From a virus (taxonomy: Duplodnaviria > Caudoviricetes), in IMG/VR virus record IMGVR_UViG_3300013132_000063, positions 1 through 54,776 of that record: 54,776 bases of DNA. One strand, 5' to 3'. The position numbers were made by a program, and so were the translations under genes. Below the pieces are notes generated by a model, which saw nothing but the letters and a program-made list of their open reading frames with translations, was not told the origin of the DNA and searched no databases. This document shows, piece by piece, positions 8,425 through 37,037 of the stretch (the stretch's first letter is position 1; every line of letters begins with the position of its first letter).

Positions 8425-11400
8425 ATGAGTTATTCAGCAGATGTGACGACAAGGGAAGTCTTTGGTAAATACACCAAAGTAAACGGCTCCCCAGCGTCGG
8501 GAACAATCACTTTCTCTGCTTCTAGCAAGATTGAAGACGAAGACGACGCGATTATCCTTTCAGGCCCTATCAAGATAACTCTTGATGATGATGGCGAATT
8601 TGCTATTGACTTACCAACTACAGACAACAGAAAATTGTCTCCTATTGGTTGGTATTACACAGCGAGAATCCGCATAACTGGCGGAAAAGCATATGATTTT
8701 AAGTTTTATCTGCCAGAAGGTGACGGCAGTGCAGTAGATATAACTTCTATAGATACACCAAGCCAAAGTAACTCTTCAATAGCGGCTGTAAGTGTTCCTC
8801 GTGGCCCAGTTGGTCCTCAAGGAGCAACAGGTCCTACAGGTATTACTGGTGCGACAGGACCTACGGGTGCAACAGGTCCAAGCGGTGGACCAACTGGTCC
8901 AACAGGCCCGACAGGTGCGACCGGTGCAACTGGCGCTGCCTCAACTGTTACAGGTCCAACTGGTCCGCAAGGCGCAGTTGGTCCGCAAGGCGCACAAGGT
9001 ATTCAAGGTGATACAGGTGCAACAGGTATTCAAGGTGTTACAGGACCTCAAGGTGCAACAGGACCAACTGGCGCACAAGGTATTCAAGGTGATACAGGTC
9101 CAATAGGACCTACTGGTTCTCAAGGTGAAATTGGCGCAACAGGTGCAACAGGTGCAACAGGTGCTGCTGGTACATCAGTAACAATCATTGGTTCTTTAGC
9201 AAATGAAGGATTACTTCCAGAAACAGGAAATCCTGGTGATGGTTATTTAATTGATGGTGATTTATTTGTTTGGGATTCTGTCAATGAAGAGTGGGACAAT
9301 GTTGGAAATATTCAAGGCCCAACTGGTGCAGTTGGTCCTACTGGTGCAACAGGTCCAACAGGTGCAACAGGTGAAACAGGAGATACAGGACCGATTGGTC
9401 CGACTGGTGATACAGGATTAACTGGTGATACTGGACCACAAGGTGAAACAGGATTAACTGGTGATACAGGTCCTACTGGTGCACAAGGTCCACAAGGTGA
9501 ACAAGGTATTCAAGGAAACCAAGGTGCAACTGGTCCGACAGGGGCAACTGGAGATACAGGTCCTACAGGTGCACAAGGTGAACAAGGTGAACAAGGTCCC
9601 ACAGGTGCGACAGGTGCTGCATCAACAGAACCTGGACCAACTGGACCACAAGGTGACACTGGACCACAAGGTGAGCAAGGATTAACTGGAGATACTGGCC
9701 CTCAAGGTGATACTGGTCCACAAGGTGACACTGGTCCACAAGGTGACACGGGTCCAACAGGAGCAACTGGAGACACTGGACCACAAGGTGAGCAAGGATT
9801 AACTGGAGATACTGGCCCTCAAGGTGATACTGGTCCACAAGGTGACACTGGTCCACAAGGAGATACAGGACCTACAGGTGCAACTGGTAATACAGGCCCT
9901 CAAGGAGATACAGGTCCTACTGGTGCTCAAGGTGAGCAAGGATTAACTGGAGACACTGGCCCAACTGGCCCAACTGGACCTACAGGTGCTCAAGGTGTAA
10001 CTGGACCTACAGGTGCTCAAGGTGTAACTGGACCTACAGGTGCAACAGGTGCTCAAGGTGTAACTGGACCTACAGGTGCTCAAGGTGTAACTGGACCTAC
10101 AGGTGCGACTGGTGCACAAGGTACTGGTGTAACAATTCTTGGTTCTTATCCAGACTACGCATCTTTAGTTGCGGCACATCCAACTGGAACTGTTGGTGAT
10201 GGATATTTAGTTGCTGGTGATTTATATGTTTGGTCAGACACTTCCGAGGACTGGGAAAATGTTGGAAACATTCAAGGTCCTACGGGTGCAACTGGTGCTA
10301 CAGGACCAACTGGAGCAACTGGTGATACTGGTCCTACTGGTGCTACTGGTCCACAAGGCGAGCAAGGCTTAACAGGTTTAGAAGGCGAGCAAGGTCCTAC
10401 AGGCCCGCAAGGAAACATCGGTCCAACAGGTGCGACTGGTGATACGGGTCCTACAGGTGCTACAGGTTCTCAGGGCGAGCAAGGTGTAACAGGACCTACA
10501 GGCCCAACGGGACCTACAGGTGCAACTGGTGAAATAGGATTAACTGGTGATACAGGTTCAACTGGAGCACAAGGTGAAGTTGGTCCGACTGGAGCAACTG
10601 GTGATACTGGAGACACAGGTCCAACAGGACCAACTGGTGCTGAGGGTGACGAAGGTTTATTTACAATTTCTTCAAATACTCCTCCAGCAGACCCAGAAAC
10701 TGGACAGGCTTGGTTCAATAGCAACACTGGAAAAGTTTATGTTTATTATGACGGCTACTGGGTAGAAGTTGGTGCTGCTCCTGTTGGAGCAACAGGACCT
10801 ACGGGCGCAACTGGCGCAACTGGTATTGGCGATACAGGACCAACTGGCCCAACGGGCGCAACTGGCGCAACTGGTATTGGCGATACAGGACCTACAGGAC
10901 CTACTGGTGCAACAGGACCTACTGGTGCTACTGGTCCAACAGGTCCACAAGGCGAGCAAGGTATAACTGGGTCCACTGGACCAACAGGTGCAACGGGTGC
11001 TACTGGTGTTTGGTATGCAACAGCGACTGCTCCAGCAAGTCCTGTTATTGGTGATGTTTGGTTCAATACAAATAATGCAAAAGTTTATGTTTACTTTGAT
11101 AACTACTGGGTAGAGTGGGCTTCATCTGATGTAGGTCCAACAGGACCAACTGGTCCTGCTGGTTCAGGTGGCGAAGGTTCAGGAGAAACAGGTCCAACTG
11201 GACCAACTGGCGTTACTGGTCCAACTGGCGCGACTGGTGAAACTGGTGAAACTGGACCAACGGGTCCTACCGGCGCGACTGGTTCGACTGGTCCTACTGG
11301 TGCAACTGGAGACACTGGCCCTCAAGGTGATACTGGTCCACAAGGTGACACAGGTCCAACTGGCCCTCAGGGTGATACTGGTCCACAAGGTGATACTGGT

Positions 11401-12138
11401 CCACAAGGTGACACAGGTCCAACTGGCCCTCAAGGTGATACTGGTCCTGTAGGAGATACAGGCCCAACTGGTGAAACAGGTCTGCAGGGAGACATTGGCC
11501 CAACTGGTGAAACTGGACCAACTGGTGAAACTGGACCAACTGGTGCTATGGGAGATACAGGTCCACAAGGTGACACTGGTCCTACAGGGCCAATTGGTGA
11601 TATAGGTCCGCAAGGTGATACTGGTCCTATTGGTGATATGGGATTAACGGGTGATACTGGTCCAACTGGTGCAACTGGACCAACTGGACCAACTGGACCA
11701 ACAGGTGCGACTGGCGCTGCGACATTTAGCGGAACAACAGATGCAACTAGTGCTGGACTTACTATTGATGAAATCGCCTATCCCGCGATGACTATGTTGG
11801 ATGTAACAAACAGTGGTTCTACAGCGTATTTATTCAATAATCAGTACAACGGAAACAATCCAACGCTTTATGCAATTTCAGGAACAACTATTGGTTTTAG
11901 ATTAAATGTTTCTGGTCACCCATTCTTAATTAGATTTTCAGGAGCAAACTACGACACAGGACTAATTCACGTCTCAACAGCAGGAGTTATATCTACTGGT
12001 GCTAGTGCTCAAGGTAAAGTTAGTGGAACTTTATATTGGCAAATCCCTTATAATATAAGTGGAAATTATGGGTATTTATGCTCTTTCCACGGTGGGATGG
12101 TTGGAACTATAACTATTAAGGATATATCAACAATATGA
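8425..12138 (+). CDS. Collagen-like tail fibre, 1237 aa, with C-terminal cupredoxin-like domain
   Basis: Phage tail-type N-terminal beta domain; long Gly-X-Y runs ([12 protein letters not shown]) broken by small Trp-rich knobs; C-terminal GHPF...CSFHGGM. Confidence 0.88.
9655..9860 (+). repeat. Exact 89-bp direct repeat with 117-bp period inside the collagen gene
   Basis: 9655-9743 is identical to 9772-9860. Confidence 0.85.
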
Positions 12139-35403: not shown

Positions 35404-36465
35404 ATGAAAATAGCAGTGTATACAATTGCTCTTAACGAGGAGCAATTTGTCGAAACTTGGTACAACTCTGTCAAAGACGAAGCAGACTACCTGCTGATTG
35501 CTGACACGGGCTCAACGGATGGCACGGTTGAGAAAGCCCGTGCTTTAGGTATCAATGTTGTTTCTATTTGGGTAAAGCCATGGCGTTTTGATGTAGCCCG
35601 CAACGCATCTTTGACTTTAGTTCCACCAGATATGGACTACTGCATTCCACTAGATATGGATGAGATTATGCTTCCAGGCTGGAGAGCAGAACTTGAGAAG
35701 GCATTTGAGGCTGGCGCAACGCGCCCGCGCTACAACTATGTGTGGAATTGGAATCCAGATGGAACTCCTGGTCTTACTTTTGGTGGAGACAAAATACACG
35801 CTCGTCAAGGCTATCGCTGGAAGAATCCAGTACATGAAGTCTTAACACCAGACCGCATCAAGGAAGTCCAATACTGGACTAGCGCAACTATGGAACATCA
35901 CGCAGATATAACTAAGTCTCGCTCTCAATACTTGCCACTTCTCAAGGCTTCTGTAGATGAAGACCCAAATGATGACAGAAATACTTTTTACTACGCACGA
36001 GAGTTATATTTTTACAACAAGTATGCCGAAGCAACCGCTGAGTTTAAGCGTCACTTAGAACTAAAAACAGCACGATGGGCGCCAGAACGAGCCGCATCTA
36101 TGCGCTATATAGGCAAGATAAATAAAGATGAAACCGAACTTTGGTACACACTAGCAATCAAAGAAGCACCTAACCGCAGAGAAGCATATGTAGATTTGGC
36201 AAAGCATTACTACTCTGTTGGTAAATGGGAAGAGTGCTACGAGCAAGCAAATGCTGCTCTGGCAATAGTAGATAAACCAATGGAGTATCTCTGCGAAGCA
36301 GAAGCCTGGGGGTATACGCCATACGATATGGCAGCAATTGCTGCATATAACTTAGGTAAATACTCAGAATCGGTAGAGTTTGCTAAGAAGGCTTTAGAAC
36401 TTTCTCCGCCAGAGGAAAAAGAAAGACTTATTAAAAACTTAGAGTTCTGCGAGGCAAAAGTATGA
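35404..36465 (+). CDS. Glycosyltransferase family 2 with C-terminal TPR repeats
   Basis: IALNEE, ADTGSTDGT, FDVARN, DxD in LDMDE, PVHE; TPR-like helices after about aa 190. Confidence 0.9.
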   Translation: MKIAVYTIALNEEQFVETWYNSVKDEADYLLIADTGSTDGTVEKARALGINVVSIWVKPWRFDVARNASLTLVPPDMDYCIPLDMDEIMLPGWRAELEKAFEAGATRPRYNYVWNWNPDGTPGLTFGGDKIHARQGYRWKNPVHEVLTPDRIKEVQYWTSATMEHHADITKSRSQYLPLLKASVDEDPNDDRNTFYYARELYFYNKYAEATAEFKRHLELKTARWAPERAASMRYIGKINKDETELWYTLAIKEAPNRREAYVDLAKHYYSVGKWEECYEQANAALAIVDKPMEYLCEAEAWGYTPYDMAAIAAYNLGKYSESVEFAKKALELSPPEEKERLIKNLEFCEAKV

Positions 36466-37037
36466 GTTATCCAAACTGGTTTATTGAAGGTAAAGCAGTA
36501 GATAATTTCTCTGCTTTTCTTCTTAAATACAAAAATACAAAAGTAGATTTTCTTCAACTTGGAGCCTATACAGGGGACGCAACTAAGTGGCTTTTTGAAA
36601 ATGTGCTTACACACCCAGAGTCAACACTTACAGATGTTGACACTTGGGAAGGCTCAAATGAAGATGAGCATAAAGAGTTTGATTGGAAGAGCGTTGAGCA
36701 GACTTATGATGATAAGAATAAAGAATGGCTTGACTCAGGTCGTCTTGTAAAAATGAAGATGACTACTAAAGAGTTCTTCAAATCAAACAATAAACAGTTT
36801 GACTTTGTCTATGTTGATGCTGACCATCATGCAGTATGGGCACTAAAAGATGGACTAGATGGCTATTCTTGCCTAAAGAACGGTGAAATTCTTGCTTTTG
36901 ATGATTATAGATGGGGCGCACATCTTCCTAAAGCAGATAGACCAGGACCAGGAATAGATGCGTTTCTAATTTCTTACGCAAATAAAATTACTATTTTGGA
37001 GCGCGGCTTGCAGGTTTGGCTACGGAAGATTTTTTAG
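36462..37037 (+). CDS. Class I SAM-dependent methyltransferase (Methyltransf_24-like)
   Basis: LQLGAYTG, VDTW, FDFVYVDADH, ILAFDDY; ATGA-coupled to the GT2 gene. Confidence 0.85.
   Translation: MSYPNWFIEGKAVDNFSAFLLKYKNTKVDFLQLGAYTGDATKWLFENVLTHPESTLTDVDTWEGSNEDEHKEFDWKSVEQTYDDKNKEWLDSGRLVKMKMTTKEFFKSNNKQFDFVYVDADHHAVWALKDGLDGYSCLKNGEILAFDDYRWGAHLPKADRPGPGIDAFLISYANKITILERGLQVWLRKIF

Follow-up and report, generated by a model that had tools for sequence, protein, structure and literature searches.

A glycosyltransferase and its coupled methyltransferase as probable modifiers of collagen-like tail fibres in a freshwater actinobacterial phage

Introduction

Where genes for enzymes follow the tail-fibre genes of a bacteriophage, it may be asked which of the enzymes, if any, act on the fibres. 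Here the question is considered for the IMG/VR virus record IMGVR_UViG_3300013132_000063, which was analysed over its entire length of 54,776 bases (hereafter the window) and which is part of a freshwater actinobacteria phage of about 120-130 kb (two WhiB genes; closest named relative Actinomycetia phage DSL-LC01). In the window a 22-kb fibre array that includes five collagen-like proteins is followed by genes for oxygenases, a halogenase, a two-domain glycosyltransferase (GT2-TPR, or GT) and a methyltransferase (MT24). An earlier, sequence-only reading had taken all of these enzymes as the tailoring machinery of a glycosylated collagen coat. The explanation favoured here, and on balance the probable one, is narrower: GT2-TPR and the coupled MT24 glycosylate, and methylate, the Thr-rich collagen fibres, and the genes between the array and the GT form a separate island. 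Folds and gene neighbourhoods thus retain the link of GT2-TPR and MT24 to collagens from the earlier idea, and the 2-oxoglutarate (2OG) oxygenases and the halogenase drop out of the system.

The glycosyltransferase and the methyltransferase

The two genes at the centre of the question are as follows.

35404..36465, + strand: GT2-TPR protein glycosyltransferase, 353 aa (PF00535 3.5e-7 plus TPR; phrog_13126 8.1e-118)
36462..37037, + strand: Methyltransf_24 O-methyltransferase-like protein, 191 aa (PF13578 2.6e-9)

In an alignment of 24 homologues of the GT, the motif D84-x-D86 and 56 further positions are invariant. The AlphaFold model (pLDDT 94.2, pTM 0.86) consists of a beta/alpha domain (residues 1-165) and helical repeats (residues 173-352), and its top Foldseek matches in the PDB are SunS (E 6.5e-18) and ThuS (2.3e-17), aligned over 368-380 columns and hence over the whole length. 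The best glycosyltransferase of another kind is WrtF (1.1e-7), and the teichoic-acid enzymes RmlT, TarS and TarP follow at about 1e-7 to 1e-6. When the PDB was searched by sequence, the only glycosyltransferases at E <0.05 were GmaR (4.9e-4), ThuS (0.0023) and SunS (0.013-0.022). GmaR is the flagellin O-GlcNAc (O-linked N-acetylglucosamine) transferase of Listeria, and all three are GT-A plus TPR enzymes that glycosylate proteins or peptides. From sequence and modelled fold we infer that GT2-TPR is a cytoplasmic, metal-dependent (DxD) protein O-glycosyltransferase, of the same family as the GT2-TPR enzymes found beside BclA-type collagens in Bacillota.

A cluster for a glycocin-like RiPP (ribosomally synthesized and post-translationally modified peptide) was considered and rejected. 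The SunS equivalog TIGR04195 scores 22.8 bits, far below its cut-off of 350, so that only the fold is alike, and the conserved partners of the GT are fibre genes, not small peptides. No Pfam transporter or thiol-disulfide oxidoreductase was detected among 25 neighbouring proteins, a survey in which small precursor open reading frames (ORFs; <80-90 aa) were not searched for.

The start codon of MT24 overlaps the stop codon of the GT as ATGA, which bears out the earlier description of the two genes as a translationally coupled pair. A phmmer search with MT24 (METHYLTRANSFERASE) gave no meaningful sequence relative in the PDB. Its model (pLDDT 92.3) has the Rossmann-like fold of cation-dependent class I O-methyltransferases and matches TrmR (4e-10), plant and bacterial O-methyltransferases of the CCoAOMT/COMT type (about 1e-8) and MeT1 (TMq 0.73), a mycobacterial sugar 3-O-methyltransferase. 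Among relatives MT24 lies beside the GT in three different gene orders, and this constant pairing in varied orders argues for a shared pathway. The simplest and most likely reading of model and comparison is that MT24 would O-methylate the sugar added by the GT.

A WhiB gene on the opposite strand (36991-37536, -) is convergent with MT24 and overlaps its 3′ end by 47 nt; the encoded protein is extended C-terminally, and the extension shows a weak Lar-like zinc-ribbon match (E 0.0057) and a tail rich in Lys.

Collagen genes beside bacterial relatives

The GT alignment was used as a query against one genome per prokaryotic species, and at least 582 relatives were confirmed. From these the best 80 were taken by similarity alone; they are full length, 41-57% identical and mostly from Bacillota, with Lacrimispora, Desulforamulus, Sinanaerobacter, Hungatella, Sedimentibacter and uncultured Bacilli among the taxa represented. 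The loci were scanned in six frames for runs of at least 8 Gly-X-Y triplets. Such a run is present in 51 of the 80 loci and lies within 3 kb of the GT in 50; in 45 of the 80 the nearest run is on the same strand and upstream of the GT. Run density by distance from the GT serves as an internal control; per 100 kb it falls from 31 at 0-1 kb to 17-18 at 1-3 kb and 7 at 3-5 kb, and the interval of 5-10 kb holds no run in 495 kb over the 80 loci. Thr occupies at least half of the Y positions in 40 of the 50 adjacent cases (manual count). Two loci annotated with Pfam (L158 and L135; L-numbers are labels of the retrieved relative loci) carry collagens with a BclA_C domain (7.6e-17 and 3.9e-28) directly upstream of two tandem GT2-TPR genes, and their surroundings are ordinary chromosomal genes. 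The tie between GT2-TPR and collagen genes in bacteria is strong, and it is not universal. MT24 has no match in the 80 bacterial loci.

Tandem pairs of GT2-TPR paralogues are frequent in Bacillota loci (L158:9986-12194, L135:9989-12192, L138:9980-12210); the tandem pair of Lacrimispora sinapis has no collagen within 10 kb. A further locus comes from the likely host group. On a 242-kb contig of a Ca. Nanopelagicales metagenome-assembled genome (MAG), three genes (L176:10001-14568) follow right after murD-ftsW-murC-ftsQ, namely a 680-aa GT2-TPR fusion that is 49% identical to the enzyme of the window, a 226-aa collagen and a further GT2 gene, and this trio suggests that Ca. Nanopelagicales cells may own a glycosylated collagen. 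A quick, unrooted tree places the Bacillota enzymes in a single supported clade (76 rows, SH-aLRT 95), and most phage enzymes group with two actinobacterial rows outside it; the direction of transfer cannot be read from this tree.

Relatives in phages

The nearest named relative, Actinomycetia phage DSL-LC01, is a 129-kb lake metagenome assembly whose GT is 63% identical to that of the window and whose replication genes are 71-82% identical. When IMG/VR was scanned with the GT of the window, 36 loci were retrieved. One of them, L031, belongs to a myovirus (sheath, gp19-type tube, T4 baseplate), and within its group the GT is 57-58% identical. Its gene order runs from a He_PIG fibre, a 1865-aa glycine-rich fibre and a 178-aa gene to a collagen (7897-9405), MT24 (9426-10004) and GT2-TPR (9986-11047), and in the collagens of this group Thr stands at 74-89% of the Y positions. 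In L193, a contig of phage-like character that was binned with an actinomycete MAG, 4 nt separate the end of the collagen gene from the GT. Overall, three phage arrangements place the GT or the methyltransferase 4-30 nt from a collagen gene.

A second scan was anchored on the conserved neighbour DUF6378 and found 385 relatives in IMG/VR, of which the best 80 were kept. Within this lineage, which is that of the window, 46 loci have 5 kb or more of sequence, and in 43 of these GT2-TPR comes after whiB (manual count). Four arrangements occur in the anchored loci, namely GT-MT, MT-GT-halogenase, MT-GT, and a 36%-identical GT alone at a distance of 4.4 kb. For 60 distinct phage GT genes, a Gly-X-Y run lies within 3 kb in 14 and at 3-10 kb in 5, and the flanks are too short in 38; the share with a collagen within 3 kb is therefore 14 of 22 informative phage loci. 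The link between GT2-TPR and collagen is drawn from the fold together with a gene neighbourhood that is conserved both among bacteria and across several lineages of phages.

Three long loci without the GT (L091, L105 and L109), as well as L094, have a different gene in the same slot after whiB. The slot genes were read in L109 only. There (1907-4151, -) the slot holds a 422-aa protein whose N-terminal TPR matches phrog_13126 (3.3e-5) and whose C-terminal half is an FkbM methyltransferase (3.8e-16); it is followed by a 332-aa gene with no Pfam, PHROG or PDB match and then by a fibre with collagen, beta-propeller and Gly-rich parts. From its sequence the TPR-FkbM fusion is read as what may be the same targeting module joined to another enzyme. 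On a more distant phage contig with GT2-TPR (L022:9094-12216), the gene after the GT encodes 1040 aa and is interrupted by a LAGLIDADG intein; it is followed by genes for a DNA methylase and a portal protein.

The fibre array

The fibre module spans 8425-30428 (22 kb), and every gene in it is on the + strand. It contains five PF01391 collagens, a beta-propeller, two CBM_5_12 fibres, three Gly_rich_2 proteins and several small ORFs.

8425..12138, + strand: collagen-like fibre protein 1, 1237 aa (PF01391 E 3e-103; tail-fibre PHROGs)
12365..14272, + strand: collagen-like fibre protein 2, 635 aa (PF01391 4.8e-32; tail-collar-like N-terminus, phrog_3449 residues 4-66)
14276..16624, + strand: collagen-like fibre protein 3, 782 aa (PF01391 2.3e-33; phrog_3449 residues 3-71)
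16594..17523, + strand: beta-propeller protein (PF23366 6.9e-8, DUF6242 1.2e-8; 52% identical homologue in DSL-LC01)
17692..18660, + strand: collagen-like fibre protein 4, 322 aa (PF01391 7.8e-10)
18660..21176, + strand: CBM_5_12 fibre protein, 838 aa (PF02839 3.4e-18; phrog_9851 tail fibre 3.5e-44)
21547..23255, + strand: two Gly_rich_2 proteins, 303 and 265 aa (PF21722 1.6e-8, 1.3e-20)
23634..24161, + strand: collagen-like fibre protein 5, 175 aa (PF01391 3.6e-11)
25326..29543, + strand: large CBM_5_12 fibre protein, 1405 aa (PF02839 3e-24; phrog_9851 7.9e-73)
29562..30428, + strand: third Gly_rich_2 protein, the final gene of the array (PF21722 1.1e-17)

The five collagens score 38.8-338 bits against PF01391, for which the cut-off is 27.2. 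When Gly-X-Y triplets are counted in runs of at least 4, the total over the five proteins is 506, with a longest run of 180 aa; collagen 1 has 10 runs with 765 aa inside them. Thr fills 345 of the 506 Y positions (68%) and Gln 78, and Pro fills 220 of the 506 X positions (43%), GPT (159), GAT (86), GDT (51) and GET (10) being the commonest triplets. Pro occurs at Y in a single triplet of the 506, and Lys in none at either X or Y. The five Thr-rich collagens in a 22-kb array are thus as first described. The dominance of Thr at Y is not a special mark, since Thr is the predominant state at this position among bacterial collagens generally (PMC8968730, in extract); the composition alone is therefore uninformative on glycosylation. 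Nor is the idea of a coat or spore-nap-like layer supported; the collagens match tail-fibre PHROGs, and four of the five have a tail-collar-like N-terminus (phrog_3449). The 22-kb array is, as predicted from its sequence, a host-recognition tail-fibre module made up largely of Thr-rich collagen-like trimers.

Collagen 1 contains long, near-identical internal duplications (window 9600-10150), and one block is found twice in the translation. These duplications are a likely substrate for length variation via recombination.

Proposed mechanism

Under the favoured explanation the collagen chains would be made in the cytoplasm late in infection, where the TPR half of the GT would bind the unfolded repeat region of a chain. 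The GT-A half, with a divalent metal at D84-x-D86, would then transfer the sugar of a nucleotide donor to the hydroxyl of a Y-position Thr, before or during trimerisation, as SgtA of C. difficile does on the spore collagen BclA3. MT24 would next methylate the sugar, and trimerisation and attachment to the baseplate would come afterwards. The acceptor (collagen Thr), the sugar, the acceptor of the methyl group and any effect on stability or adsorption are put forward here by inference. Possible benefits would include helix stabilisation, better hydration, protection from proteases and a tuning of adsorption. Galactosylated Thr is said to stabilise the collagen helix of Riftia (reported second-hand in extracts of PMC10141479), and better hydration has been proposed for glycosylated BclA (PMC8968730, in extract).

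The low-GC island

Between the fibre array and the GT lies an island (30432-35359) with genes on both strands and a GC content of 29-38%, as against 42-50% in the fibre array.

30432-31130, - strand: DUF6065-like gene, phrog_7084
31123-31761, - strand: probable 2OG oxygenase (PHROG 2954, labelled 'ferrochelatase')
31761-32390, - strand: 2OG-FeII_Oxy_3 (6e-17)
32467-33180, + strand: DUF6065-like paralogue
33183-34628, - strand: flavin-dependent halogenase (Trp_halogenase 8.5e-93)
34629-34919, - strand: 96-aa membrane ORF
34952-35359, + strand: 135-aa ORF

The sequence-only reading had listed two 2OG-Fe(II) oxygenases and a halogenase directly after the array. The halogenase is there, as is one clear oxygenase (31761-32390). 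The gene at 31123-31761 has no Pfam match at E<=0.01 and is assigned through PHROG 2954; its nearest Atlas language-model clusters are prolyl 4-hydroxylase (P4H)-like or PF13640 (0.90-0.94), which is a lead only. The list had missed the two DUF6065-like paralogues, the 96-aa membrane ORF and the 135-aa ORF. The phrog_2954 gene and the 2OG-FeII_Oxy_3 gene match the N- and C-terminal halves of phrog_3531 (positions 11-182 and 275-361), and matches of both genes to this one profile indicate that they are fused in some phages.

Against PF04820 the halogenase scores 312 bits (cut-off 21) over residues 2-434. Its N-terminal GxGxxG motif reads GGGTAG (residues 7-12), and its strings ATFKSG and EPLEAT look similar to the motifs that hold the catalytic Lys and Glu in PrnA and RebH. 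Its identity is 41-44% with copies in the cyanophages P-SSM2, P-SSM5 and S-SCSM2R and 36% with the copy in pelagiphage HTVC008M, as compared with 24% for the copy at the same place in DSL-LC01 and 30-33% for those in L008, L009, L013 and L014. The halogenases found at this position in related actinophages are mutually only 24-33% identical (for example window 33183-34628 and L001:18433-20004), and divergent halogenases at one position suggest that different ones were captured repeatedly at a single hot spot.

In HTVC008M a halogenase, several 2OG oxygenases and a 'ferrochelatase'-labelled gene adjacent to a 2OG oxygenase lie among structural genes, and searches of this phage with PF01391 and the GT alignment found neither collagen nor GT2-TPR. 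The content of the island varies among close relatives, and no island gene was seen in the 80 bacterial GT loci. A scan of the AT-rich island for promoters and terminators gave 39 sites against 28.4 expected and is uninformative. The island is judged to be a separate, exchangeable cassette that is common in aquatic phages and unrelated to collagen tailoring.

Weighing the explanations

Several observations weigh against collagen as the acceptor of the GT. Glycosylation in this phage is predicted from genes, folds, family relations and gene neighbourhoods, and the likeness to SgtA is one of published architecture, size and acceptor. The nearest collagen gene in the window ends 11.2 kb upstream of the GT, so that adjacency is seen only in relatives. 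Among the bacterial loci, which include many related MAGs and are non-independent, 29 of the 80 lack any Gly-X-Y run, and in many of these 29 the flanks reach the full 10 kb (e.g. Lacrimispora). No collagen lies within at least 8 kb of the GT in three phage loci (L007, L015 and L022, with flanks of 8-10 kb), and the whole L015 record (46.5 kb, about 42% complete) has no collagen over the Pfam cut-off. At the level of whole records, the co-occurrence of GT2-TPR and collagen that the earlier reading had proposed as a check was examined across phages. In favour of the link, PF01391 is over its cut-off in 9 of 10 records that bear GT2-TPR (4/5 and 5/5, the miss being L015). Among these are the jumbo phages PaBG, Lu11 and Erwinia phage Alexandra, in which the GT shows only 27-38% identity and is separated from the collagens by 18-140 kb. 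The 12 control phages, all large, none of which matches the GT alignment and ten of which are hand-picked jumbo phages, include 4 with a collagen, namely Bacillus phage G, Ea35-70, P-SSM2 and phiKZ (marginal), so that collagens are also found where this enzyme is missing. With related records merged, collagen is present in about 6 of 7 lineages that bear the GT and in 3 of 10 controls (one-sided Fisher test, about 0.04, calculated manually), a modest difference, and the enrichment at record level is suggestive only. As for MT24, its fold class also holds small-molecule and tRNA methyltransferases.

Since the SunS/ThuS-like fold of the model would indicate a protein or peptide acceptor, and not collagen specifically, GT2-TPR and MT24 might instead modify a non-collagen virion protein (Gly-rich fibres, capsid or tail tube) or a host surface protein, for instance a host collagen, and so mask a receptor. 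Glycine-rich fibre proteins of the Gly_rich_2 or ALK type accompany the GT in the window, L001, L015, L018 and L031 and could be the acceptor; collagens are missing near the GT in L015 and L022; the Ca. Nanopelagicales MAG has its GT2-TPR fusion and collagen gene by the dcw cluster (L176), which makes host collagens possible targets; and mycobacteriophage glycans have been placed on capsid and tail-tube C-termini (PMC12619734 citing Freeman 2023, in extract). This acceptor is nonetheless unlikely, as the bacterial family is spatially tied to collagen genes, with no run at 5-10 kb, and not to genes with glycine-rich domains, and as three phage arrangements bring the GT or the methyltransferase to within 4-30 nt of a collagen. 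A non-protein acceptor, such as phage DNA, a teichoic-acid-like polymer or a lipid carrier, modified for anti-restriction or superinfection exclusion, would agree with the way in which actinophage glycosyltransferases are interpreted in the available parts of PMC10202952 and with the weaker fold matches to the wall-teichoic-acid enzymes TarS, TarP and RmlT (E about 1e-7). However, the fold match to peptide glycosyltransferases covers the whole length and is better by ten orders of magnitude, a TPR domain and the lack of membrane segments fit a soluble, protein-directed enzyme, and the GT closes the fibre module in several lineages and stands beside collagens in bacteria, all of which leaves only a slender chance for such an acceptor. 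The broadest alternative is the pathway of the sequence-only reading, in which the collagen fibres are the shared substrate of the 2OG oxygenases, the halogenase, GT2-TPR and the methyltransferase and are hydroxylated, halogenated, glycosylated and methylated. All of these genes do lie between the fibre array and the GT or at the GT itself. In the unrelated phage L015, homologues of the 2OG, phrog_2954 and DUF6065-like genes lie ahead of GT2-TPR, all on one strand, a halogenase is found just upstream of the GT and on the same strand in DSL-LC01, L008, L009, L013 and L014, and PF13640 is described by Pfam as a prolyl 4-hydroxylase family. Set against this, a single Pro at Y and no Lys in 506 triplets leave collagen prolyl 4-hydroxylase, lysyl hydroxylase and an enzyme of the Mimivirus L230 type without their substrates, which speaks against the oxygenases as collagen tailors. 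The halogenase is closer to cyanophage copies than to actinophage ones, in a slot that has been refilled repeatedly; the best relatives of oxygenases and halogenase are in cyanophages and pelagiphages without GT2-TPR, HTVC008M also lacking collagen; and the low GC, the variable content and the lack of island genes in the 80 bacterial loci point the same way. That all these enzymes share the fibres as substrate is accordingly quite improbable, and a complete virus-encoded tailoring line, in which GT2-TPR adds a sugar, MT24 a methyl group and the island enzymes hydroxylate or halogenate fibre residues, is highly improbable.

Genome setting

Among the genes of the window are those for a large terminase of the T4 type (1677-3086), a Prim-Pol/D5 primase-helicase, a DNA polymerase of family A, an SNF2 helicase and two WhiB regulators, and this set of replication and terminase genes, with its WhiB regulators, indicates an actinobacterial phage. 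An SbcD/Mre11-like exonuclease (7054-8259, +; phrog_284, 1.3e-58) lies immediately 5′ of the first collagen gene, and the other large genes with a probable structural role are found at 48-54.7 kb on the minus strand; the position of the exonuclease gene sets the fibre module apart from them. An ORF that enters from the 5′ end of the window (1-981, +) has no Pfam match and begins with about 78 residues of pure Pro-Glu dipeptide repeat, followed by an acidic Ala-rich part, a Gly/Ser stretch and a strongly basic Lys/Arg/Thr tail.

Significance

If GT2-TPR and MT24 do act on the collagen fibres, sugar-coated fibres of this kind would be made by a large and abundant group of phages of freshwater actinobacteria, as judged from the 385 IMG/VR relatives found with the DUF6378 anchor; the same would hold for at least one lineage of myoviruses and possibly for some jumbo phages. 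These phages would share the enzyme family with spore-forming Bacillota, in which it would act on BclA exosporium collagens, and a widespread collagen-specific GT2-TPR family would be defined, with at least 582 bacterial loci, of which the best 80 were examined. Virion glycosylation in phages would extend from capsid and tail tube to host-recognition fibres, and glycosyltransferases that are read as DNA or cell-wall modifiers in actinophage papers (PMC10202952, in extract) would gain a concrete function. Should the complete tailoring line hold, it would be the first case of a structural protein of a bacteriophage being tailored post-translationally in several steps, and the 2OG oxygenases and halogenases of cyanophages and pelagiphages would be modifiers of virion proteins and not metabolic genes.

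Comparison with known systems

The closest known counterpart is the SgtA/BclA3 pair of C. difficile. According to the available parts of PMC7157674, SgtA is a protein of 358 aa with a GT-A domain (residues 1-260) and TPR that needs Mn2+ and adds beta-O-GlcNAc to Thr of the GPT repeats of BclA3, the sgtA gene adjoining bclA3. The enzyme of the window resembles it in having an N-terminal GT-A and a C-terminal TPR region and in its length (353 aa against 358), and its Bacillota homologues (41-49% identity) are encoded directly downstream of collagens with a BclA_C domain. It differs in that a phage encodes it, in that its gene closes a tail-fibre module with 11 kb to the nearest collagen, and in its coupling to a methyltransferase of a kind not found in the 80 bacterial loci. 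SunS and ThuS (SPbeta prophage, Bacillus) share the whole-protein fold, a GT-A domain joined to a helical, TPR-like substrate-binding half, and SunS is likewise encoded by a prophage (PDB molecule name); the identity is 12-16%, and the acceptor in the window is probably an O-linked Thr of a large fibre protein.

Among viruses, mycobacteriophages carry glycans on capsid and tail-tube C-termini (Freeman 2023, by way of extracts of PMC12619734), and they are alike in that actinobacteriophages would encode the glycosylation of their own virion proteins, and unlike in that the acceptors here would be collagen-like fibres. In the accessible portion of PMC9614988, Mimivirus L230 is described as hydroxylating Lys and glucosylating hydroxylysine of collagen, and A064R-D3 and A061L of PBCV-1 as viral methyltransferases that O-methylate a sugar added by a viral glycosyltransferase. 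L230 is comparable as a virus-encoded modification of collagen, and its mechanism was rejected for the window, whose repeats (506 triplets) contain no Lys; A064R works on the N-glycans of a capsid protein in a eukaryotic host. The cassettes of T4-like cyanophages and pelagiphages are alike in their halogenase and oxygenase genes, which in the present case lie in an actinophage between fibres and GT.

In the literature on related phages, actinophage glycosyltransferases are read as DNA or cell-wall modifiers in the available parts of PMC10202952, where collagen-like proteins figure only in a variable host-recognition island. The available parts of PMC10611076 on DSL-LC01 do not discuss the GT or mention collagens, and they treat a UDP-galactose mutase and the halogenase as auxiliary metabolic genes. 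No paper tying a phage glycosyltransferase to collagen-like fibres was found in a search that left subscription journals mostly uncovered. By this comparison, an arrangement of the SgtA/BclA type was already known, and what appears to be new here is a phage-encoded unit of this type that closes a tail-fibre module and is coupled to a putative O-methyltransferase.

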